Assembly: GCA_046331545.1 (NCBI GenBank)
Contig: JAXLQR010000002.1
Span: 3,247,080-3,311,079, forward strand
Source: Holophagaceae bacterium
Lineage (GTDB): Bacteria > Acidobacteriota > Holophagae > Holophagales > Holophagaceae
Direction of reading: 5' to 3'
Length of the DNA: 64,000 nt
Within the stretch, counting starts at the first letter, position 1. Every line of letters begins with the position of its first letter. The notes under the pieces are model-generated. The model was not told the DNA's origin and ran no database searches. It saw nothing but the letters and a program-made list of their open reading frames with translations. Positions 11,123 through 29,188 of this stretch are shown here, piece after piece. Made by a program: the position numbers and the translations under genes.

Positions 11123-11126
11123 ACCC

Positions 11127-12020: not shown

Positions 12021-12072
12021 GGCACCAGCCTAGCGGGAGAGGGCGGGCCGCGGCCTCTGATAAGGTGATGCC

Positions 12073-12738: not shown

Positions 12739-13804
12739 GCGTCCCGACGCCGCCGTCCCCGACGCCGCCGTCCCCGACGCCGCCGTCCCCGACGCCGCCG
12801 TCCCCGACATCGCCGTCTTCGGCGCGGGGGTCTGGGGCAGCGCCCTGGCGGTGAACTGGGCGCGCTCCGGGAAGCGCGTGGCGCTGTGGGGCCACACGCC
12901 CGCGAAGATGGCGGAGATGGCGGCGACCCGGCGGCATCCTCGGCTCAACGGAGTCGAGCTGCCGGAGGGCCTGCGGCCCGTGAGCGATCCCGCCGAGGCC
13001 TTCCCCGCGCCGGTGTGGGTCTCCTGCATGACCACCCAGTCCAGCCCGGAGGCCTGGGCGGCCCTGAAGGGCCAGGCTGAAGCCTCGGGCACGGCGTGGC
13101 CCGACGTGCTGCTGCATTCCAGCAAGGGCATCCTCGCCCGGACCCACCAGCGCCTCAGCGAGGCCCTCGAGCCGCTCCTCGGCATCCCCGTGGGCGTCAT
13201 GAGCGGGCCGACCTTCGCCGACGAGGTGGCCCAGGGCCTGCCTTCCGCCCTGGTGATGGCCCTTCCCGCCGCCGTCTCCGACGCCCGGGCGGTGGCGTTG
13301 CAGCACGCCCTGGCCACCGAGCGGCTGCGGGTCTACCTCAGCCGCGACGTCACGGGCGCCGAGCTCTGCGGCGCGCTGAAGAACGTCCTGGCCATCGCCG
13401 CGGGCCTCGTGGAGACCCTGGGCCTCGGCCACAACGCCCGGGCGGCCCTCATCACCCGCGGCCTCGCGGAGATGGCCCGCCTCGTGGCGGCCCTGGGCGG
13501 GTCCCCGGACACCGTCATGGGCCTCGCGGGCATGGGCGACCTGCTCCTCACCGCCACCGGACCCCAGAGCCGCAACCGCCGCTGCGGCGCCTACCTCGCC
13601 GAGGGGAAGACGCTGGCGCAGGCCTCGGAGCTCATGGGCGGCCAGGTGATCGAGGGCGCGAGCACCACCCGCGCCGCCCTGGCCCTGGGGGCCGAGGCCG
13701 GCGTGGACCTGCCGATCACCGAGGAGGTGGGCCGCCTGCTGGACGGCGCCGACCCGCGGGAGGCCGTGGCGCGGCTCATGGGCCGCAGCCTGAAGTCGGA
13801 GTAG
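12731..13804 (+). CDS. gpsA: NAD(P)H-dependent glycerol-3-phosphate dehydrogenase GpsA (with an N-terminal pentapeptide repeat)
   Basis: IAVFGAGVWGSALA Rossmann motif and the conserved GpsA body. The N-terminus carries 4 to 5 copies of a DAAVP unit, encoded by a 15 nt DNA tandem repeat. Confidence 0.88.
   Translation: MAERPDAAVPDAAVPDAAVPDAAVPDIAVFGAGVWGSALAVNWARSGKRVALWGHTPAKMAEMAATRRHPRLNGVELPEGLRPVSDPAEAFPAPVWVSCMTTQSSPEAWAALKGQAEASGTAWPDVLLHSSKGILARTHQRLSEALEPLLGIPVGVMSGPTFADEVAQGLPSALVMALPAAVSDARAVALQHALATERLRVYLSRDVTGAELCGALKNVLAIAAGLVETLGLGHNARAALITRGLAEMARLVAALGGSPDTVMGLAGMGDLLLTATGPQSRNRRCGAYLAEGKTLAQASELMGGQVIEGASTTRAALALGAEAGVDLPITEEVGRLLDGADPREAVARLMGRSLKSE
12746..12820 (+). repeat. 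15 nt tandem repeat (gacgccgccgtcccc) x4 perfect plus 1 degenerate, in-frame in the gpsA 5' end
   Basis: Directly visible: 12746-12805 are four identical 15-mers; 12806-12820 is a degenerate copy. Confidence 0.9.
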
Positions 13805-13837: not shown

Positions 13838-14887
13838 GTGTCCAAGCCCTTCCGCTTCCGCATCCCCACCCACGGCACCCTCGTGAAAGAGCCCTTCGAG
13901 CCCGCGGACCCCCCGCCGGGCTGGGTCCGCCTCGCGGTGAAGGCCATGGCCCTCAACCACCTCGACCTCTGGACGACCCGGGGCATCGAGGGGGTGAAGC
14001 TGCCGCTGCCGCTCACGCCCGGCTGCGACGGCGCGGGGATCGTGGAGGCCGTGGGCCCGGGCACGGCCCTGCCGCCGGGGGTCGAGGCGGGAGGCAGCGC
14101 CATGATCGCGCCGGGCCTCTCCTGCGGCCTCTGCGCCGACTGCCTGCGGGGCGACGACATGCGCTGCGCCCGCTACGGCGTCCTCGGCCACGCCTGCGAC
14201 GGCACGGCCGCCAGCCACGTCCTCGTGCCCGCGGCGAACCTCCTGCCCATCCCGCCGAACTGGGACTTCCGCCAGGCGGCGGCCTTCCCCCTGGTCTTCC
14301 TCACGGCCTGGGAGATGCTCCTCCACAAGGCGCGGCTCCAGCCCGGCGAGACGGTGCTGGTGTGGGGCGGGGGCAGTGGCGTCGGCACCGCCGCCATCCA
14401 GCTCGCGAAGTTCCTCGGGGCCCGGCCCCTCGCCGTGGTCTCCTCCCTGGAGAAGGCCATGAAGTGCTGGGAGCTGGGCACGGAGCACGTCATCGACCGG
14501 AGCCGCGAGGACGTGGCTCGACGGGTCCGCGAGCTCACCGCCAAGCGGGGCGTGGACGTGGTGTTCGAGCACACCGGCGCCGCGACCTGGGACGCCAGCC
14601 TCGCCACGCTGGCCCGGGGCGGGCGGCTGGTGACCTGCGGCACCACCACGGGGCACGAGGCCCGCCTCAACCTGCGGGTGCTCTTCGCCAAGCAGCTCAC
14701 CTTGATGGGCTCCTACATGGGCCGCCGGGAGCACCTCTGGACCCTGCTGGGCCACCTCCAGCGCAACCCTTCCAACCCGCCCTTCCGGCCCATCCTCGAC
14801 CGGGTCTTCCCGCTCGCCGAGTACCCCGCGGCCCAGGCCCACCTGGAGGCCGGCCAGGCCTTCGGGAAGGTGGTCTGCGAAGCGTGA
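13838..14887 (+). CDS. Zinc-binding alcohol dehydrogenase / quinone oxidoreductase family protein (MDR superfamily)
   Basis: GCDGAGIVEAVG, GLSCGLCADC and a GxGxxG nucleotide-binding segment. 349 aa. GTG start. Confidence 0.8.
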   Translation: MSKPFRFRIPTHGTLVKEPFEPADPPPGWVRLAVKAMALNHLDLWTTRGIEGVKLPLPLTPGCDGAGIVEAVGPGTALPPGVEAGGSAMIAPGLSCGLCADCLRGDDMRCARYGVLGHACDGTAASHVLVPAANLLPIPPNWDFRQAAAFPLVFLTAWEMLLHKARLQPGETVLVWGGGSGVGTAAIQLAKFLGARPLAVVSSLEKAMKCWELGTEHVIDRSREDVARRVRELTAKRGVDVVFEHTGAATWDASLATLARGGRLVTCGTTTGHEARLNLRVLFAKQLTLMGSYMGRREHLWTLLGHLQRNPSNPPFRPILDRVFPLAEYPAAQAHLEAGQAFGKVVCEA

Positions 14888-15060
14888 AGGAGGGCAGCCT
14901 CCTCCGGGTCCTGGGGCCGGGCTCCGGGCTGGCGGTGGCCCTGTCCCCGCTGGCCGGGGCCCTGGCCCGGGAGCCGCGGCCCGCCCCGGCCCTGGCCGCG
15001 GGCCTCCTGCTCGCGTGGCCCCTTTACCGGGTCACGGGCCCGGCGCGAAGCTGAAGCGCC

Positions 15061-15969
15061 ATGCCCCGCGTCAACAGCCTCCCCTCCGGCACGCCCTTCA
15101 CCTGGGTGGACCTCGTCAACCCCAGCGACCAGGAGCTGCTCAGCTCGGCGCCCACCTACGGCCTGCCCCCCGAGGTCGTCCGGGACTTCCTCAACAAGCC
15201 CCACCTCCCGAAGTTCGAGCGGATGGCGGGCGGACTGATGGTGGTGCTGCGGGCCTACGACGAGCAGGCCCGGGGCAACGACACCTACCAGGCCCTCACG
15301 CGGCGCCTCGTGGTCTTCATCACCCCGGAGTGGTTCTTCACCGTGCGGCGCAAGGACCAGGACTTCGCCGCGAAGGTGGTCCAGCGCTTCGCCCAGCCCG
15401 ACGCCCGGGTCCCCCGGCCCGAGACCCTGCTCAGCCACCTGGCGGCGGGGGCGGTGCGCAGCTACGAGGAGCCCCTCCGGGAGGCCGAGGAGCGCCTGGA
15501 CCGCGTGGAGACGCTGATCCTGGACCGGGGCCACGCCCGGGACCACCTGCGCCACATCTACGCCATCAAGCGTCGCTGCGCGGTCTTCAAGCGGATGCTC
15601 TGGCGCAGCCTCCTGGTGGCGAAGGAGCTGCGGGCGGAGTTCCCGGACGAGGGGGGCTGGTGGTCGGACCTCCAGGAGGAGGCCGACCGGCTCCAGGCCT
15701 GGGCCGACGAGCTGCTGGAGTCGGCCACCCACCTCCTCAACATGCAGCTCGCCCTCCAGAGCCACCGCACCAACGAGGTGATGCGGGTGCTCACGGTCTT
15801 CAGCGCCTTCTTCCTCCCGCTGACCTTCCTCGTGGGGGTCTACGGAATGAACTTCCAGCACATGCCCGAACTGAAGTGGCGCTGGGGCTACGCCCTCGCG
15901 TGGGCCGTCATGGCGGCGACGGTGCTGGGCATCCTCGCCTGGTTCCGGCGCAAGGGCTGGCTGAAATGA
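15061..15969 (+). CDS. corA: Magnesium/cobalt transporter CorA
   Basis: C-terminal two TM helices with YGMNF (GMN motif). About 300 aa. Confidence 0.9.
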   Translation: MPRVNSLPSGTPFTWVDLVNPSDQELLSSAPTYGLPPEVVRDFLNKPHLPKFERMAGGLMVVLRAYDEQARGNDTYQALTRRLVVFITPEWFFTVRRKDQDFAAKVVQRFAQPDARVPRPETLLSHLAAGAVRSYEEPLREAEERLDRVETLILDRGHARDHLRHIYAIKRRCAVFKRMLWRSLLVAKELRAEFPDEGGWWSDLQEEADRLQAWADELLESATHLLNMQLALQSHRTNEVMRVLTVFSAFFLPLTFLVGVYGMNFQHMPELKWRWGYALAWAVMAATVLGILAWFRRKGWLK

Positions 15970-16018
15970 GCCGGTCCCCGCGCCTCCGGCGCGGACTCCG
16001 GCGGCGGGAGGCGATAGG

Positions 16019-18001
16019 ATGAAGGGTTCGGGCCTTCCAGGGCCCGGTGGAGCCCGCTTGACCCCCGAGAATCCGAATCGCATCCCGCACCGCTTCCACG
16101 TCCTCCTGGCCGCCGCGGCGTTCTACCTCGGGGGCTGCACCCTCTTCCGCCTCTTCCTGCTGCTCCGCTTCGGCGGCTCCGAGCCCGTGGGCGCCCTCGG
16201 CGTCCTCAAGGTCTTCGGCTACGGCCTGCGGGTGGACCTCGCCGCGGCCGCCTGGCTGCTGCTGCCCCTCGCCCTCTGGCTGACCCTGCTGCCCCAGCGC
16301 CTCCACGGCTCGCGCTTCCACCAGGTCCTCTTCTGGATCGTGTTCACCGCCTGGCTGGTGGGGCAGACCTTCGGCTTCGTCGTGGAGTACTTCTTCTTCG
16401 AGGAGTTCAACGCCCGCTTCAACTCGGTGGCGGTGGACTACCTGCTCTTCCCCTACGAAGTCTTCGTGAACATCTGGGAGAGCTATCCCGTCGCCCTCTA
16501 CGTCGGCTCCGCGGCGGTGCTGGGCCTGATCTTCCTGCGCCTCGCGCATCCCACCCTGAAGCGGTCGATGGCGGCGAAGGACACCTTCGGCCACCGGCTG
16601 AAGGCGCTCGGCGTCTACCTGCTGGTGGGGGCGGCCGCCGTCCTCTCCATCTCCTACCGGCGCACCCACTTCTCCCCCAGCCGCGTGGTGAACGAGTTCG
16701 CCGGCAACGGCTACTACGCCCTCATCTTCGCGGCCACCACCAACCACCTCGACTACCCCGCCTTCTACGCCACCATCCCCCGGGAGGAGGCCCACGCCCG
16801 GGCCCGGAAGCTCGTGGCCCTGCCCGGGGACGCCTTCGCCTCGCCCACCCAGGGCCTGACCCGGGTGGTCGGCCCGGCGGCGGCGGCGGAGGGCCGGCCC
16901 CGGAACCTGGTGATCATCCTGGTGGAGAGCTTCGGCTCGGAGTTCTGGGGCTGCCTGGGCCGCAAGGACTCGCTCACCCCCGAGATGGACGCCCTGGCGA
17001 AGGAAGGCATCCTCTTCACCAACCTCTACGCCAGCGGCAACCGCACCGTGCGGGGCATGGAGGGGGTGCTGGCCTCCTTCCCGCCCCTGCCCGGGGACGC
17101 CATCCTCAAGCGGGACCGCTCGGACCATGTGGCCACCGTGGCGCGGGTGCTCGCGGACCAGGGCTACCAGCGCACCTTCCTCTACGGTGGGCGCGGCGTC
17201 TTCGACGGCCTCCGCTCCTTCATGGTCCGCAACGGCTACGAGCGCTTCATCGAGCAGAAGGACTTCCCCTCCGACGCCTTCAGCACGGTCTGGGGCGTGG
17301 CGGACGAGGTGCTCATGGACCGCGCCGTCGCCGAGTGCCGCGCCATGAGCCAGTCCGGCAAGCCCTTCCTGGCCACCCTGCTGACCGTGAGCAACCACAA
17401 GCCCTACACCTACCCGGCGGGCCACATCCCGGAGGATCCCTTGGCCAAGCGCCGGGAGCACGCCGTGAAGTACACCGACTGGGCCATCGGCGAGTTCTTC
17501 CGCAAGGCGAGGAAGGAACCCTTCTGGCAGGACACGCTCTTCGCCGTGGTGGCGGACCACGGGGCGCGGGTCTACGGGCGCCAGACCATCCCCATCCACT
17601 CCTACGAGATCCCCCTCCTCATCGTGGACCCGCGCGCCCCCCAGGCCCGGCGGGTGGACACCCTGGGCGGCTCCCTGGACGTCTCGCCCACCCTGCTCGC
17701 CATGCTGGGCCCGCGCTACCGCAGCACCTTCTTCGGCCGCGACCTGCTGGCGCCCCTCCCCGCGGAGGAGCGCTGGGCGGTGATGCACCACAACCGCGAC
17801 GTCGGCCTCTACCGCAACGGCCGGATGGTGGTGCTGGGGCTGAAGAAGTCCAAGGAGTTCTACGCCATGGACCCGGCGACGCGCCTGCTGGTCCCCTCGA
17901 AAAAGGAGGGCGCGGGCGACGAGGAACTGGAACGGGACGCCACGGCCCTCTTCCAGGTCGCCGACGAGCTCTACACCTCCGAGCGGTACCGGACGAACTG
18001 A
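16019..18001 (+). CDS. Sulfatase-domain membrane protein, LTA synthase / phosphoglycerol transferase family
   Basis: Five N-terminal TM helices followed by an alkaline-phosphatase-superfamily (sulfatase) domain (LVIILVESFGSEFWG...). 660 aa. Confidence 0.7.
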   Translation: MKGSGLPGPGGARLTPENPNRIPHRFHVLLAAAAFYLGGCTLFRLFLLLRFGGSEPVGALGVLKVFGYGLRVDLAAAAWLLLPLALWLTLLPQRLHGSRFHQVLFWIVFTAWLVGQTFGFVVEYFFFEEFNARFNSVAVDYLLFPYEVFVNIWESYPVALYVGSAAVLGLIFLRLAHPTLKRSMAAKDTFGHRLKALGVYLLVGAAAVLSISYRRTHFSPSRVVNEFAGNGYYALIFAATTNHLDYPAFYATIPREEAHARARKLVALPGDAFASPTQGLTRVVGPAAAAEGRPRNLVIILVESFGSEFWGCLGRKDSLTPEMDALAKEGILFTNLYASGNRTVRGMEGVLASFPPLPGDAILKRDRSDHVATVARVLADQGYQRTFLYGGRGVFDGLRSFMVRNGYERFIEQKDFPSDAFSTVWGVADEVLMDRAVAECRAMSQSGKPFLATLLTVSNHKPYTYPAGHIPEDPLAKRREHAVKYTDWAIGEFFRKARKEPFWQDTLFAVVADHGARVYGRQTIPIHSYEIPLLIVDPRAPQARRVDTLGGSLDVSPTLLAMLGPRYRSTFFGRDLLAPLPAEERWAVMHHNRDVGLYRNGRMVVLGLKKSKEFYAMDPATRLLVPSKKEGAGDEELERDATALFQVADELYTSERYRTN

Positions 18002-18043
18002 GCCGCCGCGACGTCCCCCCTTGCTAGATTTGGATTCGAACCT

Positions 18044-19105
18044 TTGGGAGCGCCCATGAAAGTGCTGATCCTCGGCGTGAACGGCTTCATCGGGAGCCAT
18101 CTGGTGGGCCGCATCCTCCGCGACACGGCCTGGGACGTCTACGGCATGGACCTGGGCACCCACAAGATCACCGACCACGTGGGGCATCCCCGCTTCCACT
18201 TCGTGGAGGGCGACATCACCATCAGCAAGGAGTGGATCGAGTACCACGTGAAGAAGTGCGACGTGGTGCTGCCGCTCGTCGCCATCGCCACCCCGAAGAT
18301 CTACGTCACGGATCCGCTGCGGGTCTTCGAGCTGGACTTCGAGGAGAACCTGCGCATCGTCCGCCAGTGCGTGAAGTACCGGAAACGCGTGGTCTTCCCC
18401 AGCACCTCCGAGGTCTACGGCATGTGCGGGGACGCCGAGTTCGACGAGGAGACCTCGCCCCTGGTGACCGGCCCCATCCCCATGCAGCGCTGGATCTACA
18501 GCACCAGCAAGCAGCTCCTGGACCGCGTGATCTGGGCCTACGGCCAGAAGGAGGGCCTGCAGTTCACCCTCTTCCGGCCCTTCAACTGGATGGGGCCCAA
18601 GCTGGACAGCCTCAACACCGCGAAGGAGGGCAGCTCGCGCCTGGTGACCCAGTTCGTCTGGAACCTGATCCAGGGCCAGCCCCTCAAGCTCGTGGATGGA
18701 GGTGCCCAGCGGCGGTGCTTCATCGACGTCGAGGACGCCATGGACGGCCTGATGATGATCCTGCGCAACGAGGGCGGGAAGGCCGACGGCGGCATCTTCA
18801 ACATCGGCAACCCGAAGAACGACCACAGCGTCCGCGAGGTGGCCGAGATGCTCCGCGGGCTCTGGAAGGACCACCCGAAGCGCGCCGAGCTCGGGGTGGC
18901 CCTCAGCGAGCTGGTGGAGACCAGCAGCGGGGAGTTCTACGGCAAGGGCTACCAGGACGTGCTGACCCGCACGCCGAGCATCCACCGCATGCGGGAGGCC
19001 TTCGGCTTCGACCCGAAGATCGGCATGATGCAGAGCCTGGCCACCAGCCTGGACTTCTTCCTGAAGGAATACGCCGCCATGGAGCAGGTGGCCGACGAAG
19101 GCTGA
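18044..19105 (+). CDS. ArnA C-terminal-domain-like NAD-dependent UDP-glucuronate oxidative decarboxylase (UDP-4-keto-pentose forming)
   Basis: Near-colinear match to E. coli ArnA residues about 315-660: [75 protein letters not shown]. Standalone, with no N-terminal formyltransferase domain. Confidence 0.8.
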
Positions 19106-19117
19106 GGCCCCCCGACG

Positions 19118-20806
19118 ATGACGCGCCGCGACCGCCTGCAGCTCCTGGCCGCCTGGGTCCTCCTGGGGCTGCTGCCCCTCTTCATCCGGCCGCTCTGGGA
19201 GCCGGACGAGACCCGCTACGCCGAGATCCCGCGGGAGATGCTCGCCACCGGCGACTGGCTGGCGCCCCGGCTCCAGGGCCTCCTCTACTTCGAGAAGCCC
19301 CCCCTGCAGTACTGGCTGTCGGCGCTCTCCATGAAGCTCTTCGGCCTGAATGCCCCGGCGGCGCGCCTTCCCCTGGCCCTGGCGGCGGGGCTCATGATGC
19401 TCGCGGCCTGGCGCCTGGCCTGGCGCCTGGGGGCCCGGCGGCCGGCCTGGGCGGCCATCCTGGCGGGCACCACGTTGCTGGGCTTCGTCACGGGCCAACT
19501 CCTCACCCTGGACGCCCTCTTCACCGCCTTCACCCTGGCGGCCCTGGCGGCGGCGGTGGAGGCCGTCACCGCGCGGGTGGAGGACCGGCCCCACCTGCCC
19601 TGGACCCTGGGCGCCTTCGCCGCCTGCGCCGCGGCCATGCTCACGAAGGGCCTCGCGGGCCCCGTGCTGCTGGGCGGCGTGCTGCTCTTCTCCCTGCCCG
19701 TGGCGTGGCGGGACGCGCGGCTCCGCCGGGCGGTGCTCGCCACCGGCTTCCATCCCCTGGGCTGGGCCTGCTTCCTGGCCCTGGCGGCGCCCTGGTTCGT
19801 GCGGGTGGACCGCGCGCACCCGGGGCACGCGGCCTACTTCTTCATCCACGAGCACTTCGCCCGGTTCAGCAGCACCGTCCACAACCGCCAGGGCGCCGCC
19901 AACCCGCTCCTCGACAAGCTCTACTTCGTGGGCGTGCTGGCCCTGGGGCTCCTGCCCTGGCTGAGCATGGCCGTCGTGGGGCTGAAGCGGGGCCTGGCCT
20001 TCTTCCGCCGCGCCTCGGGCCCGGTGATGGAGGGCGCCTCCCTGCGCCGGTGGACCGTGGCGGCGGTGTGGTGGGCCGCCCTCTGGCCCTTCCTCTTCTT
20101 CACCTTCTCGGGCTCCAAGCTGCCGCCCTACGTCCTCCCCTGCGTGGTGCCCCTGCTGGCCCTCGCCTGCGCCTTCGAGCGCGAGGGGGAGGAGCCCGCC
20201 GCCCTCCGGCGCGCCGCCTTCGAGCTCTTCATCCTGGGCGCGGTGCTGATGGTGGCCGCCGTGGTCTTCCGGGCCGAGGTGGACGGAGAGGAGTGGGCCT
20301 TCGCCGCGGGCTTCGCCTACGGACTGCTCGGGCTCTGGGCCCTGAGACCCCAGGCCCTGGGCGGCCTCACGGCGCCGCGGTGGCTGGCCGCCCTGGCGGG
20401 CTGCAGCCTGCTCTTCGTCGAGGCCGGGCACCGGGTCGCCATTCTGGACAAGGACCCGGCCCCCCTGGTCGGGGCGGCGCCGCCCGGCGCCCAGTGGATC
20501 AGCTACGGCGTCCATTTCCACGGCCTCCCCTTCCACGCCCGGCAGCGGGTGGCCGTCGTCGCGGGCACCGGAGAGCTGGCCGACGGGCGCGATCGCGCGC
20601 CCCAGGCCGAACGCGAACGGTGGATCCCCGAGCACGCGGGGGACCTGCTCCCCCTGGCGCGGCGCATGCGCGCCGAGGCGCCCGGCCGCCCGGTCGCCCT
20701 GCTCGCCAAGGAACGGGACTGGGATCGTGCCCTCCCCGAGGCCCGGACGGCCTTCCGGGAGCTGCGGCGGCAGCACGGCATGGTGCTGGCGGTGCTGGCG
20801 GAGTGA
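19118..20806 (+). CDS. GT39 family glycosyltransferase (ArnT / PMT_2-like undecaprenyl-phosphate-sugar-dependent transferase)
   Basis: WEPDETRYAEIPREM and EKPPLQYW motifs characteristic of ArnT/GT39. About 12 TM helices. 562 aa. Confidence 0.8.
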   Translation: MTRRDRLQLLAAWVLLGLLPLFIRPLWEPDETRYAEIPREMLATGDWLAPRLQGLLYFEKPPLQYWLSALSMKLFGLNAPAARLPLALAAGLMMLAAWRLAWRLGARRPAWAAILAGTTLLGFVTGQLLTLDALFTAFTLAALAAAVEAVTARVEDRPHLPWTLGAFAACAAAMLTKGLAGPVLLGGVLLFSLPVAWRDARLRRAVLATGFHPLGWACFLALAAPWFVRVDRAHPGHAAYFFIHEHFARFSSTVHNRQGAANPLLDKLYFVGVLALGLLPWLSMAVVGLKRGLAFFRRASGPVMEGASLRRWTVAAVWWAALWPFLFFTFSGSKLPPYVLPCVVPLLALACAFEREGEEPAALRRAAFELFILGAVLMVAAVVFRAEVDGEEWAFAAGFAYGLLGLWALRPQALGGLTAPRWLAALAGCSLLFVEAGHRVAILDKDPAPLVGAAPPGAQWISYGVHFHGLPFHARQRVAVVAGTGELADGRDRAPQAERERWIPEHAGDLLPLARRMRAEAPGRPVALLAKERDWDRALPEARTAFRELRRQHGMVLAVLAE

Positions 20807-20847
20807 TCGGCCTTGGGGCCCGGCCCGGGGAACTCCATGATGAAGCC

Positions 20848-21591
20848 ATGAGCTCCCGCCTCCTCGAGAAGATCACCGCCAAGGACCACCGCCTGGCCAG
20901 CTACCGCTACTTCGAGCTGCTGGTGCACCTCTACGTGGTGGTGCTCCTCATCTCCAACCTCGTGGGCCAGAAGACCTCGGCCTTCGGCCCCTTCCGGGTG
21001 AGCGGGGCCCAGCTCCTCTTCCCCATCACGTACATCTTCAGCGACATCTTCACGGAGGTGTACGGCTACGCCGCGTCCCGGCGCGCCATCTGGATCGCCT
21101 TCGTGGCCTCCATCCTCATGGCGGCCATGGGCATGTTCATGGTGTGGATCCCGCCCGCCGAGGGCTTCCGGAACCAGGCGGCCTTCGAGGCGGTCTTCGG
21201 CGCCGTTCCGCGCATGGTGGCGGCCAGCCTCCTGGCCTTCTGGGCCGGCGAGTTCACCAACTCCTACGTGCTGGCGAGGATGAAGGTCTGGACCGGCGGG
21301 CGGTGGCTCTGGACCCGCACCATCGGCAGCACCGTGGCGGGCCAGCTGGTGGACAGCATCATCGTCACCTTCGGCTTCTTCTACGGCCGGGAGAGCGTGC
21401 CCCACATCCTCCAGATCATCGCCTCGGGCTACGTGGCCAAGGTGCTCTACGAGAGCCTGGCCACGCCGCTCACCTACGCCATCGTCCACGGGCTCAAGAA
21501 GGCGGAGGGCGTGGACGTCTACGACGTGGGGACGGACTTCAACCCCTTCGGGCGGGAGAAGCGGACGGAAGGGCCGGCGGAGGCGCCGTGA
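20848..21591 (+). CDS. YhhQ/VUT family queuosine-precursor transporter-like membrane protein
   Basis: DUF165-type sequence (LISNLVGQK...FSDIFTEVYGY). 6 TM helices. 247 aa. Confidence 0.65.
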   Translation: MSSRLLEKITAKDHRLASYRYFELLVHLYVVVLLISNLVGQKTSAFGPFRVSGAQLLFPITYIFSDIFTEVYGYAASRRAIWIAFVASILMAAMGMFMVWIPPAEGFRNQAAFEAVFGAVPRMVAASLLAFWAGEFTNSYVLARMKVWTGGRWLWTRTIGSTVAGQLVDSIIVTFGFFYGRESVPHILQIIASGYVAKVLYESLATPLTYAIVHGLKKAEGVDVYDVGTDFNPFGREKRTEGPAEAP

Positions 21592-22514
21592 GCGGCCGCC
21601 TCCGGCTCGGCGTGGACCTGGGCGGCACGAAGATCGAGGGCCTGGCGCTCTCGGCCGCCGGCACGGAAGTGGCGCGCCGTCGCGTCCCCACGCCCCCGGG
21701 TGACTACGCCGCCACGGTGGAGGCCGTGGCCGTCCTGGTGGAATCCCTCGAAGCCGAGGCCGGCGTGCGCGGCACCGTCGGCGTCGGCACGCCGGGGGCG
21801 GCGTCGCGGGCCACGGGGCTGATGAAGAACGCGAACTCCACCTGCCTGATCGGAAAGCCCCTCCAGGCGGACCTGGAGGCCCGGCTGGGGAGACCCGTCC
21901 GCCTCGCCAACGACGCCGACTGCTTCGCCCTCTCCGAGGCCGTGGACGGCGCGGGGCAGGGGGCGGAGACGGTCTTCGGCGTGATCCTCGGCACCGGCGT
22001 CGGCGGCGGCGTCGTGGTGCGCGGGCAGCTGCTCACGGGGCCGAACGCCATCGCCGGGGAGTGGGGCCACAACCCGCTGCCCCTGCCCGAAGGGCCCGAC
22101 CTGCCGTTGCCGAACTGCTACTGCGGGCGCCGGGGCTGCGTGGAGGCCTACCTCTCGGGGCCGGCCTTCGCCGCCGACCACGCCCGGCGCACCGGCCAGG
22201 ACCTGGAGGCGCCGGAGATCGCCGCCCGGGCCCAGGCCGGGGACGACGCCTGCGACGTGAGCCTCGGGCTCTACGAGCAGCGCCTCGCCCGCGGCCTCGC
22301 CGGCGTGATCAACCTCCTCGACCCCGACGTCATCGTCCTGGGCGGAGGCCTCTCGAGGATCCCGCGGCTCTACCGCACCGTGCCGCGGCTCTGGCTCCCC
22401 CACATCTTCTCGGACGCGGTGGCGACGCGGCTCCTGCCCGCCGCCCACGGGGACGCCAGCGGCGTGCGGGGCGCGGCCTGGCTCTGGAGCCCGGCGGAAG
22501 CCGCGAGGGCCTAG
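21588..22514 (+). CDS. ROK family sugar kinase (N-acetylglucosamine kinase / fructokinase-like)
   Basis: LGVDLGGTKIE and the CxCGxxGCxE zinc motif (CYCGRRGCVE). GTG start overlapping the upstream stop. Confidence 0.8.
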   Translation: MSGRLRLGVDLGGTKIEGLALSAAGTEVARRRVPTPPGDYAATVEAVAVLVESLEAEAGVRGTVGVGTPGAASRATGLMKNANSTCLIGKPLQADLEARLGRPVRLANDADCFALSEAVDGAGQGAETVFGVILGTGVGGGVVVRGQLLTGPNAIAGEWGHNPLPLPEGPDLPLPNCYCGRRGCVEAYLSGPAFAADHARRTGQDLEAPEIAARAQAGDDACDVSLGLYEQRLARGLAGVINLLDPDVIVLGGGLSRIPRLYRTVPRLWLPHIFSDAVATRLLPAAHGDASGVRGAAWLWSPAEAARA

Positions 22515-23782
22515 GGCTTCGGCGCGCGGTCGAGGCGCTCGAGCGTGGCCGTGCTCGCGGGGCGCTCCTTTCGCAGGCGGCCGGAGACGGCCTCGGCCCG
22601 GGCGAAGGCGCGCATCAGGTTGCCGCCGGCGAGCTTCCGGAGATCGTCGTCCTGCCACCCGCGGCGGACCAGCTCCGCGAGGAGGTCCGGGTACTTCGAC
22701 ACGTCCTCGAGCCCCACGGGCATGTCGCCGCCCCAGAAGTCGCTGGAGATGCCCACGTGGTCGTGGCCGGCCACCTTCGCCACGTGGTCGATGTGGTTGG
22801 CCACGTCCTTGAGCGCGGCCTTCGGGCTCGGCCCGTGGGCCTTCGCGTACGCGGCCTCCAGCGTCTTGTAGTCTGCGTCGAAGGCGATGCCCTTCGCCTT
22901 GGCCTCCTGTTCCAGGCCCTCGCTCCAGGCCTTCACGTCCTTGTTCACGAAGGACGGGATGAAGGTCACCATCACGACGCCGCCGTTGGCTGCCATGCGC
23001 GCCAGGATCGCGTCAGGCACGTTGCGGGGATGGTCCACCAGGGCCCTCGCGCTGCTGTGGGAGAAGATCACCGGCGCCGCGCTGGTGTCCAGCACGTCGC
23101 GCATGACGTCGGGGCTCACGTGGCTGAGGTCCACCAGCATCCCCAGGCGGTTCATCTCGCGCACGACCTCCTTCCCGAAGGGCGTCAGGCCGTGGTGCTT
23201 CGGCGCGTCGAGGGCCGCGTCGGCCCAGTCCAGGGTCACGTTGTGGGTGAGGGTCAGGTAGCGCGCGCCGAGGTCGTAGTAGGCCCGCAGGGCGCCCAGG
23301 CTGTTCTCCAGCACGTGGCCGCCCTCCATGCCCAGCAGCGAGGCCACCTTGCCCTTGGCGCGGATGCGGCGGATGTCGGCGGTGCCCAGGGCCAGTTCCA
23401 GGGCCTCCGGGTACCGCGCGATCATGCGCCGGGCGAGGTCCAGCTGCTCGAGCTGCACCTTCGCGAAGCCCTCCTTCGTCTCGCCCGGCACGTAGACGGA
23501 CCAGAACTGGGCGCCCACCATGCCCTGCTTCAAGCGGGCCAGGTCCGTGGGACCGGAGGTGGGCCTGCGGAGGTCGTAGGCCTCCACGTCCCGGGGGGCC
23601 TTCGGATCCTCGCGGATGGTCCAGGGCAGGTCGTTGTGGCCGTCCACGAGGAGGGTGGAGGCCAGCAGCCTCCGGGCGTGGGCGAGGGCGGGGTCCGGCT
23701 TGGGGACCGGCGCGGTCTGGGCCTGCGGCGCCTGGGCGGCGAGCAGGCAGGGAAGGGACAGGACGGGCAGGGCGCGGCGCAT
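22511..23782 (-). CDS. Membrane dipeptidase, peptidase family M19
   Basis: Signal peptide, then the VDGHNDLPW signature and the conserved M19 body. 423 aa. Confidence 0.85.
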   Translation of the reverse strand: MRRALPVLSLPCLLAAQAPQAQTAPVPKPDPALAHARRLLASTLLVDGHNDLPWTIREDPKAPRDVEAYDLRRPTSGPTDLARLKQGMVGAQFWSVYVPGETKEGFAKVQLEQLDLARRMIARYPEALELALGTADIRRIRAKGKVASLLGMEGGHVLENSLGALRAYYDLGARYLTLTHNVTLDWADAALDAPKHHGLTPFGKEVVREMNRLGMLVDLSHVSPDVMRDVLDTSAAPVIFSHSSARALVDHPRNVPDAILARMAANGGVVMVTFIPSFVNKDVKAWSEGLEQEAKAKGIAFDADYKTLEAAYAKAHGPSPKAALKDVANHIDHVAKVAGHDHVGISSDFWGGDMPVGLEDVSKYPDLLAELVRRGWQDDDLRKLAGGNLMRAFARAEAVSGRLRKERPASTATLERLDRAPKP

Positions 23783-23798
23783 GGTGACTCCAGGCGGA

Positions 23799-24068
23799 TC
23801 AGTGCTTCGTGAAGGCGTCCTTGACGCCGTGGCCCAGTTCCTTCGCGCCTTCGGCGATGCCCTTGCCCGCGGTCTTCGCCCCTCGGCCGACGGCCTTCCC
23901 GCTGTCCTTGGCCACCTGGCCCACCTTCTTCCCGCCCTTCCTGGCGGCCTGGCCCACCTTCTTCCCGGCCTCTCCCACCTTGTGGCCGGCGTCCTTCAGG
24001 TCCTTCTTCACGGTCCCTTCCTGGCCCGGGGCGGCGGCCAGGAGCGCGGCGAGCAGGGCGGGGAGCAT
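23799..24068 (-). CDS. Small Lys/Gly/Ala-rich secreted protein with KKVGQ-type repeats
   Basis: 89 aa with an N-terminal hydrophobic leader and degenerate repeats (GHKVGEAGKKVGQAARKGGKKVGQVAKDSGKAVGRGAKTAGKG). Confidence 0.4.
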   Translation of the reverse strand: MLPALLAALLAAAPGQEGTVKKDLKDAGHKVGEAGKKVGQAARKGGKKVGQVAKDSGKAVGRGAKTAGKGIAEGAKELGHGVKDAFTKH

Positions 24069-24138
24069 GGGGCCTCCGGGAATCCGCCAGTGTAGCTCCG
24101 GCCTTGGAGGATGGCGTGGCCTCGCGGAAACTGGAGGG

Positions 24139-25860
24139 ATGGACGAAGACCAGCTCCAGGGCCCGGGCGGGAAGGGCGGATTCGCCGCGTGGATCCGGGC
24201 GAACCGCTGGCCCCTCCTCTTCGCGCTGCTGATGCTCCTCGTGCTGCCCATGCGGGACCTCTGGGCCCCGGATGAGCCCGACTTCGCCCAGTGCGTGCGG
24301 GAGATGCGCGAGCGCAGCACGTGGCTGATGCCCTGGCTCAATGGCGTCCCCTACGACGAGAAACCCATCCTCTTCTACTGGGCCATGAAGGCCTGCGCGG
24401 TGGCGGGGGACGCGATCACCGGCGGCGCGGGCTTCCGCCACGGCATCGCCGCCTGGGCCCTGCGCCTGCCTTCGGTCCTGACCTCCATCGCCTTCGTCTT
24501 CGCCCTGCGGCGGTGGACCGCGCGGTTCCTGGACCTGAAATGGGCCGACCTCGCCGTGCTGGTGCTGGCCTCCACCCCCCTCTGGTTCTGGCAGTCCCAT
24601 TTCATCCAGATCGACCTGATGTTCGCGGCCCTGCTGGCCTGGAGCTGGCTCGCGTGGCTGGGGGGCTACCTGCTGCTCCGGGGCCACGTGTCCGTACGTC
24701 GCCCCCGCGAAGCCCGGCGCTGGTTCCTGCAGGCCTACCTCTGCCTGGGCCTCGCCTTCCTGGCCAAGGGGCCCCTGGCGGTCGTCCTGTCGCTGATGAT
24801 CCTGTTCTTCTTCCTGCTCTGGCAGGGGGACTGGAAGGCCGCGTGGCAGGCCCACACGCCCCTGGGCGTGCTGGTGGTGGCCGCGGTGGTGCTGCCCTGG
24901 TACGTGGCGGCGGGGCTGCAGGGGGGCGCCGTCTACGCCTACGCGCTGATCATCCACCAGAATTTCGAGCGCGCCACCAAAGCCTGGGACCACGTGCAGC
25001 CCTTCTGGGCCTACGGGAAGTACCTCGGCGCCGACTTCTTCCCCTGGGTGCTGCTGCTGCCGGCCCTGGCCTTCCACCTCGCGGGCGGCGAGGCGCGCAA
25101 GGACCCGCGCCAGCGCTTCCTCCTGCTCTGCTTCGCGCTGCCCTTCCTCTTCCTCTCCACGGTGCAGAGCAAGCAGGGCAAGTACCTGCTGCCCAGCTAT
25201 CCCGCCCTGGCCCTGCTGGTGGCGGGGCTGCTGCGGCCGCTGGTGGACGCGGGGGCGGACGCGGTCCGGACCCGGAGGCTCGGCGGCGTGCTGGCGGCGG
25301 CCCTCAGCCTCCTCGCCCTCATCGCCTGCCTCGTGGCCTTCCTGCCCCTCGGCGACGCGGCCCTGCGGGCCCAGGGGGCGCCCCTGCTTCCGGTGGTGCG
25401 CGCGCTCGGGCTGCTCCTGGTGGCCGGTTCGATCCTGGCCGCGGCGGCCGCGCTCAAGGCCGACGGCCGCCGCGCGGTGCAGGTCACGGCCCTCACCCTG
25501 GGCGCGGTCTACCTCGTGGGCGGCACCTGGGGCTTCCGCCGGCTGGACCCCCAGAAGAACTTCTTCGCCTGGACCGAGGCCGTTCAGCCCCTGATCGCGG
25601 GCCGCAAGGTGCGCTTCTGGCAGACCATCCGCAGCGGCGCCATGGTCTACACCGAGCACCGCATGCCCGAGGTCCGCGACTTCGAAACCCTCGAGAGGGA
25701 ACTCGGCCCCGAGGACCGCCTGGTGTCCATGGCCCGGGAGTGGAACGAGGACGCCCGGGGTCTCACCCCCGAGCGACGCGCCCGCTTCGAGGTGCTGCTG
25801 CGCATGCCCAGCGGCGGGGGCGAACTGCTACTGCTGAAGTGGAAGGACCCGAAACCCTGA
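24139..25860 (+). CDS. Second GT39 family glycosyltransferase (ArnT-like)
   Basis: WAPDEPDFAQCVREM and EKPILFYW are equivalent to the GT39 motifs of the 19118 gene. Multi-TM. About 573 aa from the internal ATG. Confidence 0.7.
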   Translation: MDEDQLQGPGGKGGFAAWIRANRWPLLFALLMLLVLPMRDLWAPDEPDFAQCVREMRERSTWLMPWLNGVPYDEKPILFYWAMKACAVAGDAITGGAGFRHGIAAWALRLPSVLTSIAFVFALRRWTARFLDLKWADLAVLVLASTPLWFWQSHFIQIDLMFAALLAWSWLAWLGGYLLLRGHVSVRRPREARRWFLQAYLCLGLAFLAKGPLAVVLSLMILFFFLLWQGDWKAAWQAHTPLGVLVVAAVVLPWYVAAGLQGGAVYAYALIIHQNFERATKAWDHVQPFWAYGKYLGADFFPWVLLLPALAFHLAGGEARKDPRQRFLLLCFALPFLFLSTVQSKQGKYLLPSYPALALLVAGLLRPLVDAGADAVRTRRLGGVLAAALSLLALIACLVAFLPLGDAALRAQGAPLLPVVRALGLLLVAGSILAAAAALKADGRRAVQVTALTLGAVYLVGGTWGFRRLDPQKNFFAWTEAVQPLIAGRKVRFWQTIRSGAMVYTEHRMPEVRDFETLERELGPEDRLVSMAREWNEDARGLTPERRARFEVLLRMPSGGGELLLLKWKDPKP

Positions 25861-25872
25861 GCCGAGGCCCCC

Positions 25873-26250
25873 ATGCCCCCCACCATCAAAGCCATCCCCC
25901 TCATCGTCGTCGGCGTGCTGCTCAACGCCGGGGCCCAGATCGCGCTGAAGAAGGGCCTCCAGGCCGCCGGCGGCCTGGACCTCCACCTGGGCGCGCTGGT
26001 GAAGGTGCTGCTCCAGCCCTGGGTGCTGGCGGGCCTGGCCTGCTACGCCGTGAGCGTGGTGGTGTGGCTGGGCGCGCTGTCCATGGTCGACGTGAACTAC
26101 GCCTACCCCTTCCTCGCCCTGGGCTTCCTCGCCAACGCCCTCATGGCCCGGGCCTTCCTCGGCGAGGCCATTCCGCCCATGCGCTGGGTGGCCCTGGCGG
26201 TCATCGTGGCGGGGGTCGGGCTGCAGGCATGGACGGGGAAGGGGCACTGA
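25873..26250 (+). CDS. SMR/EamA-like 4-TM protein, ArnE/ArnF-like undecaprenyl-phosphate-sugar flippase subunit
   Basis: 125 aa, four TM helices. Similar to ArnE/ArnF small multidrug resistance-type proteins. Immediately downstream of a GT39 gene. Confidence 0.6.
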   Translation: MPPTIKAIPLIVVGVLLNAGAQIALKKGLQAAGGLDLHLGALVKVLLQPWVLAGLACYAVSVVVWLGALSMVDVNYAYPFLALGFLANALMARAFLGEAIPPMRWVALAVIVAGVGLQAWTGKGH

Positions 26251-26306
26251 GGGCTTCGCTCCACCCTCGGGGTCCCGCTAGGCTGTCTCACCCATCCCGG
26301 TGAGCC

Positions 26307-27899
26307 ATGCATCTCCGCAGCCCCCTGCCCGCGCCCGAAGTCCCGCAGGCGCCCCTCCAGCACCTGGTCCTGCGCCGCGCGAAGGACCTGCCCGACAAGA
26401 CGGCCCTCATCGACCTGGGCACGGGCCGGCACCTCACCTTCCATGCCCTGGAGGCGGCGGTGCGGCGGGTGGCGGGAAACCTGGCGGCGCGGGGGTTCAG
26501 AAAAGGGGATGTGCTCGCCCTCGCGACGCCCAACTGCGCCGAGTTCGTGCTCGCCTTCCATGGCGCGGGGCTCCTGGGCGGCGTCGTCACGACCCTGAAC
26601 CCCGCGTACACCGCCGAGGAGATGGCCGCCCAGCTCAAGGATGCCGGCGCCACGCGCCTCCTCGCCCATCCCGTCATCGCCGAGAAGGCCCGGGAGGCGG
26701 CCCGCCTCGCCAACCTCGCCGAGCTCTATGCGACCCACCCGGAGCCCGGCTTCATCCCCTTCGCCGAACTGGAGGCCGAGGGGCCGCCGCCGCCGGAGGT
26801 GGCGATCGACCCCCACGCGGACCTCATGGCGCTGCCCTACAGCAGCGGCACCACGGGGCTTCCGAAGGGCGTGATGCTCACCCACGCCAACCTCGCCTCC
26901 AACGTCCTGCAGAACGTCGCCTGCGGCCTCACGGAGCGGGACGTGCTCCTGGGCGTGCTGCCCCTCTTCCACATCTTCGGGCTGAACGTGCTCATGAACA
27001 CGGGGCTGAGCATCGGGGCCACCCTCGTGCTCATGCCCCGCTTCGACCTGGAGGACTTCCTCGGCGCCATCCAGATGCACCGCGCCACCTATGCCTTCGT
27101 GGTGCCGCCCATCCTGCTGGCCCTGGCCAAGCACCCGCTGGTGGCCAAGTACGACCTCAGCTCCCTCGACCGCCTCCTCAGCGGCGCCGCGCCCCTCGGC
27201 GACGGGCTCGCCCGGGAGGTGGAGGCCCGCCTGGGCTGCGCCGTGATGCAGGGCTACGGCCTCACGGAGACCAGCCCCGTGGCCCTGGTCTCGGCCCTCG
27301 ACGGCAGCATGCCCAAGGACGCCGCCGGCATGCCCGTGGCCGGCACCGAGGCGCGGATCGTGGACCTGGAGACCGGCGCCGAGGCCGCCCCGGGGGCCCG
27401 GGGCGAGCTGTGGATCCGCGGACCGCAGGTGATGAAGGGCTACCTGAACCGTCCGGAGGACACGGCCCACGTCCTGGACGCCGAGGGCTGGTTCCACACC
27501 GGAGACATCGCCCGGGCCGACGAGGCGGGCCGCGTCTTCGTGGTGGACCGGCTCAAGGAGCTCATCAAGGTCAAGGGCATGCAGGTGGCGCCCGCGGAGC
27601 TGGAGGCCATCCTGCTCACCCACCCCGCCGTCGCGGACGCCGCCGTGATCCCCATCCCCGACGAGAAGGCCGGCGAGCGGCCCAAGGCCTACGTGGTCCT
27701 CAAGCCCGGCCAGCAGGCCGGGGCCGAAGCCCTCATCGCCTACGCCGCCGAGCGCACCGCCCCCCACAAGCGCATCGCCGAGGTGGCCTTCGCGGCCACC
27801 ATCCCGAAGTCGCCCTCGGGCAAGATCCTCCGCCGGCTCCTCGTGGAGGAGGAGCGGGCCCAGCGCACCTGGGAGCCGGAGCGGGGAGGCGGGCTCTAG
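26307..27899 (+). CDS. AMP-dependent acyl-CoA synthetase / 4-coumarate--CoA ligase family
   Basis: AMP-binding signature LPYSSGTTGLPKGV plus GYGLTE and GWFHTGD motifs. 530 aa. Confidence 0.88.
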   Translation: MHLRSPLPAPEVPQAPLQHLVLRRAKDLPDKTALIDLGTGRHLTFHALEAAVRRVAGNLAARGFRKGDVLALATPNCAEFVLAFHGAGLLGGVVTTLNPAYTAEEMAAQLKDAGATRLLAHPVIAEKAREAARLANLAELYATHPEPGFIPFAELEAEGPPPPEVAIDPHADLMALPYSSGTTGLPKGVMLTHANLASNVLQNVACGLTERDVLLGVLPLFHIFGLNVLMNTGLSIGATLVLMPRFDLEDFLGAIQMHRATYAFVVPPILLALAKHPLVAKYDLSSLDRLLSGAAPLGDGLAREVEARLGCAVMQGYGLTETSPVALVSALDGSMPKDAAGMPVAGTEARIVDLETGAEAAPGARGELWIRGPQVMKGYLNRPEDTAHVLDAEGWFHTGDIARADEAGRVFVVDRLKELIKVKGMQVAPAELEAILLTHPAVADAAVIPIPDEKAGERPKAYVVLKPGQQAGAEALIAYAAERTAPHKRIAEVAFAATIPKSPSGKILRRLLVEEERAQRTWEPERGGGL

Positions 27900-27919
27900 G
27901 CGGGGGCGTCCGCCGGAGC

Positions 27920-29188
27920 CTACTTCGTCAGCGCGCGCCAGGCCCGGGCCAGGTCCTCCCGGTCGTCGGGGTGGGCGAGGTTGATGAGGGCCTTGGCCCG
28001 CTCGTGGAGGGTCTTGCCGGCCAGGTCGGCGGCGCCGTACTCGGTGATCACGTAGTGCACGTGGGCCCGGGTGGTGACCACGCCCGCGCCGGCCTTGAGC
28101 TGGGGCACCAGGCGGGACTTGCCGTCCCGGGTCCGGCTGGGCAGGGCGATGATGGGCTTGCCGCGCTCGGAGATGGAGGCGCCGCGGATGAAGTCCATCT
28201 GGCCGCCCACGCCGCTGATGATGCGGCTGCCGATGGAGTCGGCGCACACCTGGCCCGTGAGGTCCACCTCGACCGCCGAGTTGATGGCGGTGACCCGCGG
28301 GTTCCGCGCGATGATGCCCGGGTTGTTGACGTAGGCGATGTCGAGCAGGATGCAGGCCGGGTTGTCGTGGATGTAGTCGTAGAGCGGGCGGGAGCCCACC
28401 ACGAAGCCCGCGATGGTCTTGCCGGGGTGCACCTTCTTCTGGCTGTTGTCCACGGCTCCGGACTTGAGGAGCTCCAGGCAGCCGTCGCTCCACATCTCGG
28501 TGTGGAGGCCCAGGTGGCGGTGGCTGTGCAGCGCCGCCAGCACCGCGTCGGGGATGGCGCCGATGCCCATCTGGAGGGTGGCGCCGTCCTCGATCAGCGC
28601 CGCGGCGTGGCGGCCGATGGCCTCCTCCACCGGACCGCGGGGCGCCGCCGGGGACTCGGGGATCTCCACCTCCGTCTCGATCCAGTGGTGGATCTGGCTC
28701 ATGTGGATGAAGCCGTCCCCGTGGACGCGCGGCATGCGCGGATTCACCTGGGCGATGACCACCGCCGCGGTCTCCACCGCGGCCCGGGCCACGTCCACCG
28801 AGGTGCCGAGGGTGCAGTAGCCGTGCTGGTCCGGCGGGCTGACGTGGATCAGCGCCACGTCCGGCGCGCGCCGCCCGGAGCGGAAGAGGTTGGGGATCTC
28901 CGAGAGGAAGCAGGGCAGGTAGTCCACCTGCTCGCTGCCCACGCGGTCCCGCAGGTTGTGGCCGACGAAGAGGTTGGTGGTGCGGAAGGAGTCGGCGTAC
29001 ACCGGATCGGCGTAGGCCCCGCGGCCCGAGGTGTGGAGGTGCATGATCTCCACGTTCCGCAGCTCGGGGGCGCGCTCCAGCAGCGCGTCCACCAGGGCCA
29101 GGGGCGTGGCGCTGCCCCCGTGGAGGAAGACCCGCTGGCCGGAGCGGATGCGGGCGATGGCGTCGCGGGGATCGGTGTGGCGGGGCAT
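27920..29188 (-). CDS. Acetyl-CoA hydrolase/transferase family protein (4-hydroxybutyrate / succinyl-CoA:acetate CoA-transferase-like)
   Basis: N- and C-terminal AcetylCoA_hydro domains (GGSATP...SGRG; EVDLTGQV). 422 aa. Confidence 0.8.
   Translation of the reverse strand: MPRHTDPRDAIARIRSGQRVFLHGGSATPLALVDALLERAPELRNVEIMHLHTSGRGAYADPVYADSFRTTNLFVGHNLRDRVGSEQVDYLPCFLSEIPNLFRSGRRAPDVALIHVSPPDQHGYCTLGTSVDVARAAVETAAVVIAQVNPRMPRVHGDGFIHMSQIHHWIETEVEIPESPAAPRGPVEEAIGRHAAALIEDGATLQMGIGAIPDAVLAALHSHRHLGLHTEMWSDGCLELLKSGAVDNSQKKVHPGKTIAGFVVGSRPLYDYIHDNPACILLDIAYVNNPGIIARNPRVTAINSAVEVDLTGQVCADSIGSRIISGVGGQMDFIRGASISERGKPIIALPSRTRDGKSRLVPQLKAGAGVVTTRAHVHYVITEYGAADLAGKTLHERAKALINLAHPDDREDLARAWRALTK

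Follow-up and report, generated by a model that had tools for sequence, protein, structure and literature searches.

Does a gene cluster that holds only part of the enzymes for lipid A aminoarabinose modification still serve that pathway, or has it been turned to another sugar? This question is raised by a locus in a 64,000-nucleotide (nt) stretch of DNA from a Holophagaceae bacterium (contig JAXLQR010000002.1, positions 3,247,080 to 3,311,079 of the forward strand), which we refer to as the window. In E. coli and Salmonella, the arnBCADTEF (pmrHFIJKLM) genes serve to modify lipid A with 4-amino-4-deoxy-L-arabinose (L-Ara4N). Resistance to polymyxin and cationic peptides arises mainly through this modification, and work on it has been confined almost entirely to Proteobacteria. 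The window holds three of the seven Arn functions, the decarboxylase, the transferase and the flippase, and these are unaltered as far as their sequences tell. A preliminary description of the window regarded the locus as an Arn-like undecaprenyl-phosphate-sugar locus without arnB, arnC and arnD, and reasoned that its sugar may therefore be a non-aminated pentose or a 4-keto sugar. Our analysis bears out the first statement, and the pattern extends to 42 related Holophagaceae genomes, but the second is unsupported. We favour, with about an even chance of its being right, a reduced and clade-wide arn-type lipopolysaccharide (LPS)-modification cluster belonging to a split Ara4N-type pathway, whose remaining genes would be unlinked.

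The GC content of the window is ~72%, and high GC gives rise to many spurious frames in mechanical lists of open reading frames (ORFs). Genes were therefore called by GC3 (third-position GC) frame analysis together with codon-position asymmetry, and the calls were checked against Pfam and NCBIfam. For comparison, the protein encoded at 18056-19105, a standalone decarboxylase that we call DH, was scanned against one genome per species. This gave 42 loci from Holophagaceae, Geothrix and 'Acidobacteria' metagenome-assembled genomes (MAGs) and isolates, at 76-97% identity, and 38 further loci from other phyla, at 58-68% identity. The flanks of all comparative loci comprise ±10 kb around DH, and the denominators given for each gene are the loci with enough flank. 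In the closest relative (L001), DH is 97% identical and the gene order is that of the window.

DH has the sequence of an intact ArnA-type decarboxylase. It is a short-chain dehydrogenase/reductase (SDR) colinear with ArnA residues 316-655 at 61% identity, as had been proposed for the gene at 18044; an ATG at 18056 (MKVLILG) is an equally good start. In a search of the Protein Data Bank (PDB), DH matched the ArnA decarboxylase domain (2bll) with 480 bits and the Burkholderia pseudomallei enzyme PbgP3 (3slg) with 428 bits. The match to ArnA is far stronger than those to UDP-apiose/xylose synthase (215 bits) and UDP-xylose synthase (UXS; 94 bits), so that DH stands apart from the ordinary UXS enzymes with which the preliminary description had allowed that it might group. 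The GxxGxxG motif and residues T432, S433, E434, Y463, K467 and R619 (E. coli numbering) are invariant in 43 Holophagaceae and 38 other-lineage sequences. We take T432, Y463 and K467 to be the catalytic residues of ArnA, and S433, E434 and R619 to be its decarboxylation residues. Two fixed differences set DH apart from formyltransferase-linked ArnA domains, an LxW to FxF change in a motif near the C-terminus, and neither falls on a catalytic position checked. Median identity between DH and such domains is 61%, compared with 63% among such domains from different phyla, and the Holophagaceae DH sequences form one clade in a neighbour-joining tree (midpoint-rooted, no support values). From this likeness to ArnA, the predicted product of DH is UDP-4-keto-pentose.

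DH scores above the cut-off of NF008872 (542.8 versus 294 bits), an equivalog that carries the name of Ralstonia RsU4kpxs, which is likewise a standalone ArnA-C-terminal homologue. For DH, however, this name does not separate activities, as its score on the full-length ArnA model NF005998 is nearly equal (529.7 bits, against a cut-off of 777, with only model positions 316-649 covered).

The gene that starts 13 nt past DH encodes GT1, the first of two enzymes that had been described as GT39/ArnT-like. The likeness to ArnT stands, since ArnT (5ezm) was the sole PDB match of both and the quoted motifs are present; the family assignment does not, as the CAZy family of ArnT is GT83 and not GT39. 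The 5ezm match of GT1 spans residues 13-496 with an E value of 8.9e-37. Its motifs read WEPDETRYAEIPREM...YFEKPPLQYW, and ArnTs within complete arn operons of environmental bacteria have almost the same first periplasmic loop as GT1, EPDExRYAEIPREM...YFEKPPLQYW. Tavares-Carreón et al. found Y43, K69, R254 and E493 of B. cenocepacia ArnT to be required for activity; the equivalents in S. enterica are Y36, K62, R246 and E478, and the first periplasmic loop of ArnT contains RYA and YFEKP motifs (PMC5377068). Both motifs are present in 36 of 37 GT1 orthologues, and the four residues are kept in 36-37 of the 37. By these positions, GT1 reads as an ArnT orthologue with all known functional residues.

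The third component is a 125-residue SMR-type protein encoded 13 nt past a second ArnT-family gene (GT2nd, below). As had been proposed for the gene at 25873, it has four transmembrane (TM) segments, counted here by a crude hydropathy scan, and matches ArnE and ArnF, albeit weakly and below the cut-offs: 35.3 bits for ArnE (cut-off 92, E 1e-8) and 33.2 bits for ArnF (cut-off 99, E 5.7e-8). The cluster has this one SMR gene and no ArnE/ArnF pair. Canonical loci (L055, L059, L061, L073 and L080) have a lone SMR gene between arnT and arnB, and the protein is 40-54% identical to its product. By this resemblance, it corresponds to the one ArnE/F-like protein encoded in canonical arn operons of environmental bacteria.

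The three components do not lie together by chance. GT1 is adjacent to DH in 34 of 37 related loci, and the conserved unit is DH-GT1, often extended by a gene for a Lys/Gly-rich protein, GT2nd and the SMR gene. This cluster sits among housekeeping genes, after plsY-gpsA-adh-(corA), and in most relatives the Lys/Gly-rich gene and GT2nd come straight after GT1. Its order of DH, ArnT and, further on, SMR mirrors A-(D)-T-E/F of the arn operon. One could still hold that DH and the membrane glycosyltransferases are neighbours without sharing a pathway. DH would then supply UDP-xylose or UDP-4-keto-pentose to cytoplasmic glycosyltransferases of core, O-antigen or exopolysaccharide synthesis, and GT1 and GT2nd would use other undecaprenyl-phosphate sugars (hexosamine, galacturonate or mannose). 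Consistent with this, L015 and L038 have DH but no GT1 within 10 kb of it, roughly 40-50% of loci are without GT2nd and SMR, and GT83 enzymes with donors other than Ara4N exist, such as Rhizobium RgtA-D, Bordetella LgmB and Francisella FlmK. Nevertheless, the gap between DH and GT1 stays below 350 bp in 34 loci that span 74-97% DH identity, and the nearest relatives of all three components outside the clade sit in complete arn operons. We therefore regard such uncoupling as quite improbable.

A separate observation concerns the integrity of GT1. In L016, L018 and L020 (~10800-13300), the gene is broken over several frames in long-read MAG contigs, with many pieces in L020; these are either pseudogenes or the result of homopolymer sequencing errors.

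The rest of the pathway is absent from the vicinity. As the preliminary description had stated, ArnB, ArnC, ArnD and the formyltransferase half of ArnA are not found in the window: tblastn with the Arn proteins of an Escherichia ruysiae locus (L070) gave matches limited to DH, GT1, GT2nd and SMR, and hidden Markov models (HMMs) of the four, built from 29-35 canonical sequences, found nothing there either. At E<1, the same HMMs found nothing within ±10 kb of DH in the 42 Holophagaceae loci, with the exception of one ORF in L032. DH is a standalone gene in all 42. No formyltransferase domain fused to it was found upstream in the window, where 43 nt separate DH from the preceding gene, or in the 42 related loci. 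The loci from other phyla differ: in 37 of the 38, formyltransferase sequence lies immediately upstream of DH, and ArnB, ArnC and ArnD are encoded as well wherever the flank reaches far enough.

The exception among the 38 is instructive. In L068, a Pseudomonadota MAG, a standalone ArnA-type decarboxylase is followed by ArnD (10001-11968), and the ±10 kb around it contain no ArnB, ArnC, formyltransferase or ArnT. The other steps must be encoded elsewhere in that genome, and L068 is thus a precedent for dispersed arn genes. A similar dependence holds for the Holophagaceae. To our knowledge, GT83 enzymes are fed only with polyprenyl-phosphate monosaccharides that a family GT2 glycosyltransferase has made, and in none of the 42 genomes do the ±10 kb around DH contain an ArnC-like GT2 polyprenyl-phosphate transferase. 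Whatever its sugar, the locus must therefore depend on unlinked genes, and the local lack of arnB, arnC and arnD cannot be read as a genome-wide lack, nor does it by itself show a non-aminated sugar. Together with the retained catalytic residues of DH, the retained Ara4N-transfer residues of GT1 and the precedent of L068, this leaves the earlier inference of a non-aminated sugar unsupported.

Under the split pathway that we favour, DH would oxidatively decarboxylate UDP-glucuronate to UDP-4-keto-pentose, and enzymes encoded elsewhere would turn this into an undecaprenyl-phosphate-linked sugar. The minimum for that step would be a GT2 polyprenyl-phosphate glycosyltransferase; most probably the set comprises ArnB, formyltransferase, ArnC and ArnD, giving undecaprenyl-phosphate-Ara4N. 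SMR would flip the lipid-linked sugar to the periplasmic face, and GT1 would transfer it, most probably as L-Ara4N, to a lipid A phosphate. GT2nd would probably put the same or a different sugar on another position of the LPS.

Several points weigh against this account. ArnB, ArnC, ArnD and the formyltransferase are missing locally from the window and from 42 of 42 Holophagaceae loci, and such a clean, clade-wide loss of four amino-group-handling steps is the pattern expected from a switch to a neutral sugar too. The RYA and YFEKP motifs may not by themselves single out Ara4N among the sugars of GT83 enzymes. GT1 scores 183.9 bits on the ArnT equivalog model NF009784 (cut-off 567), with the membrane domain alone aligning; ArnTs of complete environmental arn operons score similarly low against E. 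coli ArnT (137-169 bits).

The first of these points is the main support for a real loss of the amination branch. DH, with or without an unlinked 4-reductase, would then yield UDP-xylose, UDP-L-arabinose or a 4-keto-pentose, a non-ArnC GT2 would load undecaprenyl phosphate, SMR would flip the product, and lipid A or the LPS core would receive a neutral pentose from GT1 and GT2nd. What is missing near DH is exactly the set of four enzymes that act on the amino or formamido group, and an arnBCADTEF-type operon stripped of B, C, D and the formyltransferase half of A would leave the order DH-ArnT-...-SMR. According to PMC5607165, citing Gu 2010 and Polizzi 2012, ArnA-type enzymes can also give off UDP-xylose as a by-product. 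However, the two fixed differences between DH and formyltransferase-linked ArnA domains include no catalytic position among those checked, GT1 keeps all residues for Ara4N transfer in a loop nearly identical to that of canonical ArnTs, and the absence of the arn genes was established locally, in the window and ±10 kb. We also know of no described undecaprenyl-phosphate-xylose or -arabinose pathway that feeds a GT83 enzyme. On balance, such a loss is unlikely, although less so than the uncoupling of DH from the glycosyltransferases. A more far-reaching version is that the Holophagaceae have dispensed with amination and formylation, pass a neutral or 4-keto pentose via an unlinked non-ArnC GT2 to GT1, and place a non-cationic pentose on lipid A or core, with GT2nd and the Lys/Gly-rich protein acting as a further, undescribed LPS-remodelling module; this would be unlikelier than the simple loss.

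Three nearby genes were considered as substitutes for missing steps and set aside. The L032 ORF found by the HMM search has 254 residues and Formyl_trans_N only, and occurs at a single locus. With no more than 37.7 bits on the ArnA-formyltransferase HMM, it probably belongs to the purine pathway. In the 'Holophaga sp.' subgroup, a class-V aminotransferase considered in place of ArnB is a NifS cysteine desulfurase (503 bits); its gene lies directly past GT1 with a slight overlap (L032 15776-16984, L033 12726-13976, L034 15020-16276). The conserved upstream Zn-dependent alcohol dehydrogenase (Zn-ADH) is a PIG3/quinone-oxidoreductase-type medium-chain dehydrogenase/reductase (MDR). The 4-ketoreductases known to us are SDRs, and the protein was therefore counted unlikely as an NDP-sugar 4-reductase.

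We now turn to the second glycosyltransferase and its target. GT2nd likewise matched only ArnT (5ezm, E 3.3e-19) in the PDB and scores 128.2 bits on NF009784 (cut-off 567), and its motifs read WAPDEPDFAQCVREM...YDEKPILFYW. All 18 orthologues have DFA in place of RYA, Y[SD]EKP in place of YFEKP, and A or G in place of the C-terminal Glu (E478 equivalent). The positions equivalent to Y36, K62, R246 and E478 are thus F, K, R and A/G, so that the Tyr and the Glu are lost. GT2nd is 28% identical to GT1 (52 bits) and closer to canonical ArnTs (median 90 bits). Its 120 best database homologues listed have at least 56% identity, and all organism-named ones are Holophagaceae, including Geothrix oryzae, G. 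campi and Mesoterricola silvestris among the matches listed. By these features, GT2nd appears as a second ArnT-family enzyme with a changed donor/acceptor loop. An upstream extension of its ORF from 23809 was rejected as coding, because codon-position GC puts 23799-24068 on the minus strand.

The minus-strand gene, transcribed divergently from GT2nd, encodes a strongly cationic protein of 11-residue repeats (GGKAVGxxAKE-like) that had no Pfam or NCBIfam match. Orthologues in the same position in 22 loci (e.g. L042 12765-13073) have a signal peptide and a variable number of repeats. The conservation of this small secreted protein between the two glycosyltransferase genes, as well as the Pfam PMT/PMT_2 matches of their products, could suggest PMT-like protein O-glycosylation, which the preliminary description had allowed, with periplasmic proteins such as the adjoining Lys/Gly-rich protein as targets. 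Yet this protein has almost no Ser or Thr, and conserved ones are nearly absent. Among solved structures, both glycosyltransferases match ArnT and no PMT, Pfam finds no MIR domain, and the residues specific to ArnT, the C-terminal Glu among them, are kept in GT1. Moreover, a gene of the GT9 LPS heptosyltransferase family lies between GT2nd and SMR in seven Geothrix-group loci (L026, L029, L030, L031, L035, L039 and L042); the gene (e.g. L042 14813-15832) is heptosyltransferase II-like with 87 bits, below cut-off, and is absent from the window. Its presence inside the cluster points to LPS, and not protein, as the substrate, in agreement with the lack of PMT matches and MIR domains and the scarcity of conserved Ser or Thr. 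Protein O-glycosylation by GT1 or GT2nd is thus very improbable.

How does this locus compare with known systems? It shares with arnBCADTEF a decarboxylase domain at 61% identity with matching catalytic residues, an ArnT that keeps Y36, K62, R246 and E478, and an SMR-type flippase homologue. It differs in that neither the window nor the ±10 kb around DH in 42 relatives encodes ArnB, ArnC, ArnD or the ArnA formyltransferase domain, in having a single SMR instead of the ArnE and ArnF pair, in its additional divergent ArnT paralogue and Lys/Gly-rich secreted protein, and in its housekeeping surroundings (plsY, gpsA). The decarboxylase is also a separate polypeptide in Burkholderia (B. cenocepacia arnA1/arnA2 and B. 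pseudomallei PbgP3), but these standalone decarboxylases lie within a complete arn cluster (PMC4993015). DH resembles E. coli ArnA more closely than it does the Burkholderia enzyme, which suggests that the standalone state arose independently. For GT2nd, a different set of systems may offer a model. Rhizobium RgtA-D/RgtE, Bordetella LgmABC and Francisella FlmK/FlmF2/NaxD comprise ArnT-family enzymes of the GT-C fold whose polyprenyl-phosphate sugar is produced by a GT2. In such GT83 systems of lipid A and core, the enzyme often exists as several paralogues that serve different LPS positions, and GT2nd could plausibly be of this kind. Unlike the Holophagaceae cluster, they usually have a linked GT2 partner and have no UDP-glucuronate decarboxylase.

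None of the components is new; the novelty lies in how they are arranged, in a reduced cluster that recurs across the family and has an extra, divergent ArnT paralogue and a cationic repeat protein. Current understanding is not overturned. The cluster is family-wide in Acidobacteria that are abundant in soil and sediment. If the split pathway is true, arn genes are dispersed over the chromosome, and such genomes would be mis-scored in resistome surveys based on counts of 'arnA' or 'arnT' hits. If, less likely, the enzymes have been re-used, ArnA- and ArnT-type enzymes have been adapted to a different sugar. Two conserved members of the cluster, GT2nd and the small cationic secreted protein, are so far uncharacterised, and both can be tested in Geothrix and Mesoterricola strains that are in culture.

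The other genes at the locus are not part of this system. The YhhQ-like, ROK, M19 and Lys/Gly-rich genes are interleaved as first described, but most relatives lack the first three between GT1 and the Lys/Gly-rich gene. The sulfatase-family, Vut_1, ROK and M19 genes recur near DH in few relatives (Table 1) and are recent lineage-specific insertions. The sulfatase-family protein has five hydropathy peaks in residues 28-212 and a Pfam Sulfatase domain over residues 295-564, matching the five TM segments claimed before and the LtaS/MdoB layout of five N-terminal TM segments and an extracytoplasmic sulfatase-fold domain. Its closest solved structure is VP1736 (3lxq, 287 bits), with LtaP/LtaS weaker, and it falls below the named equivalogs phosphoglycerol transferase I (89.6 versus 572 bits) and LtaS (45 versus 970).

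Table 1. Genes of the DH locus in the window, with their occurrence in related loci
Feature	Position	Strand	Basis	Placement in related loci	Occurrence in related loci
LtaS/MdoB-like membrane-anchored sulfatase-family protein	16019-18001	+	Pfam Sulfatase, E 2.9e-45	upstream of DH	3/38
DH, standalone ArnA-C-terminal-type UDP-glucuronate oxidative decarboxylase (predicted)	18044-19105	+	NF008872, 542.8 bits
GT1, ArnT orthologue, GT-C fold, GT83-type lipid A/LPS glycosyltransferase (predicted)	19118-20806	+	Pfam PMT_2; 5ezm	downstream of DH	34/37; <350 bp from DH in 34
Vut_1/YhhQ-like queuosine-precursor transporter	20845-21591	+	Pfam, NCBIfam	downstream of DH	5/34
ROK kinase	21588-22514	+	Pfam, NCBIfam	downstream of DH	2/33
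M19 dipeptidase	22511-23782	-	Pfam, NCBIfam	downstream of DH	2/31
Small secreted Lys/Gly-rich repeat protein, 89 aa	23799-24068	-	codon-position GC	between GT1 and GT2nd	22 loci
GT2nd, divergent ArnT-family paralogue	24139-25860	+	Pfam PMT_2; 5ezm	downstream of DH	16/31
SMR-type 4-TM protein, 125 aa, ArnE/F-like candidate flippase	25873-26250	+	weak ArnE/ArnF matches	downstream of DH	18/30

A scan of 14800-28000 for promoters and terminators gave nothing that exceeded shuffled controls, and no record was found to be identical to the DH protein, whichever of its two start codons was taken. A literature search on lipid A or arn genes of Holophagae, Geothrix and Acidobacteria returned nothing, and the supplements of PMC13362970 contain no arn entries.

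The remaining genes of the window are housekeeping genes, encoding FtsH, TilS, two glyceraldehyde-3-phosphate dehydrogenase (GAPDH) paralogues, pyruvate kinase, CinA, PlsY, GpsA, a tricorn-like protease, MtgA, malate dehydrogenase, a class II ribonucleotide reductase and the signal recognition particle (SRP) RNA. The GAPDH paralogues lie in tandem (5475-6488 and 6508-7512, both on the minus strand) and adjoin pyruvate kinase. The SRP RNA, of the bacterial small type, is the sole Rfam match in the window (RF00169, 58168-58263, plus strand, 64 bits), and its 3' end overlaps the predicted end of an opposite-strand DUF2400 gene. A long ORF at 49661-51400 on the minus strand has no Pfam match, a signal-like N-terminus, a Pro-rich segment and a highly charged repeat stretch rich in Lys, Glu, Arg and Gln (EKREEKREQKQEARQERHEQRQEQ...). 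Finally, a 436-residue ORF at 53003-54313 on the minus strand has an N-terminal Schlafen/AlbA_2 domain (PF04326, E 4e-16) and lies within a low-GC island at ~52950-54430 (1.5 kb at ~52% GC, versus 72% for the genome), flanked by an amidohydrolase on one side and the class II ribonucleotide reductase on the other; it looks horizontally acquired and is possibly defence-related.

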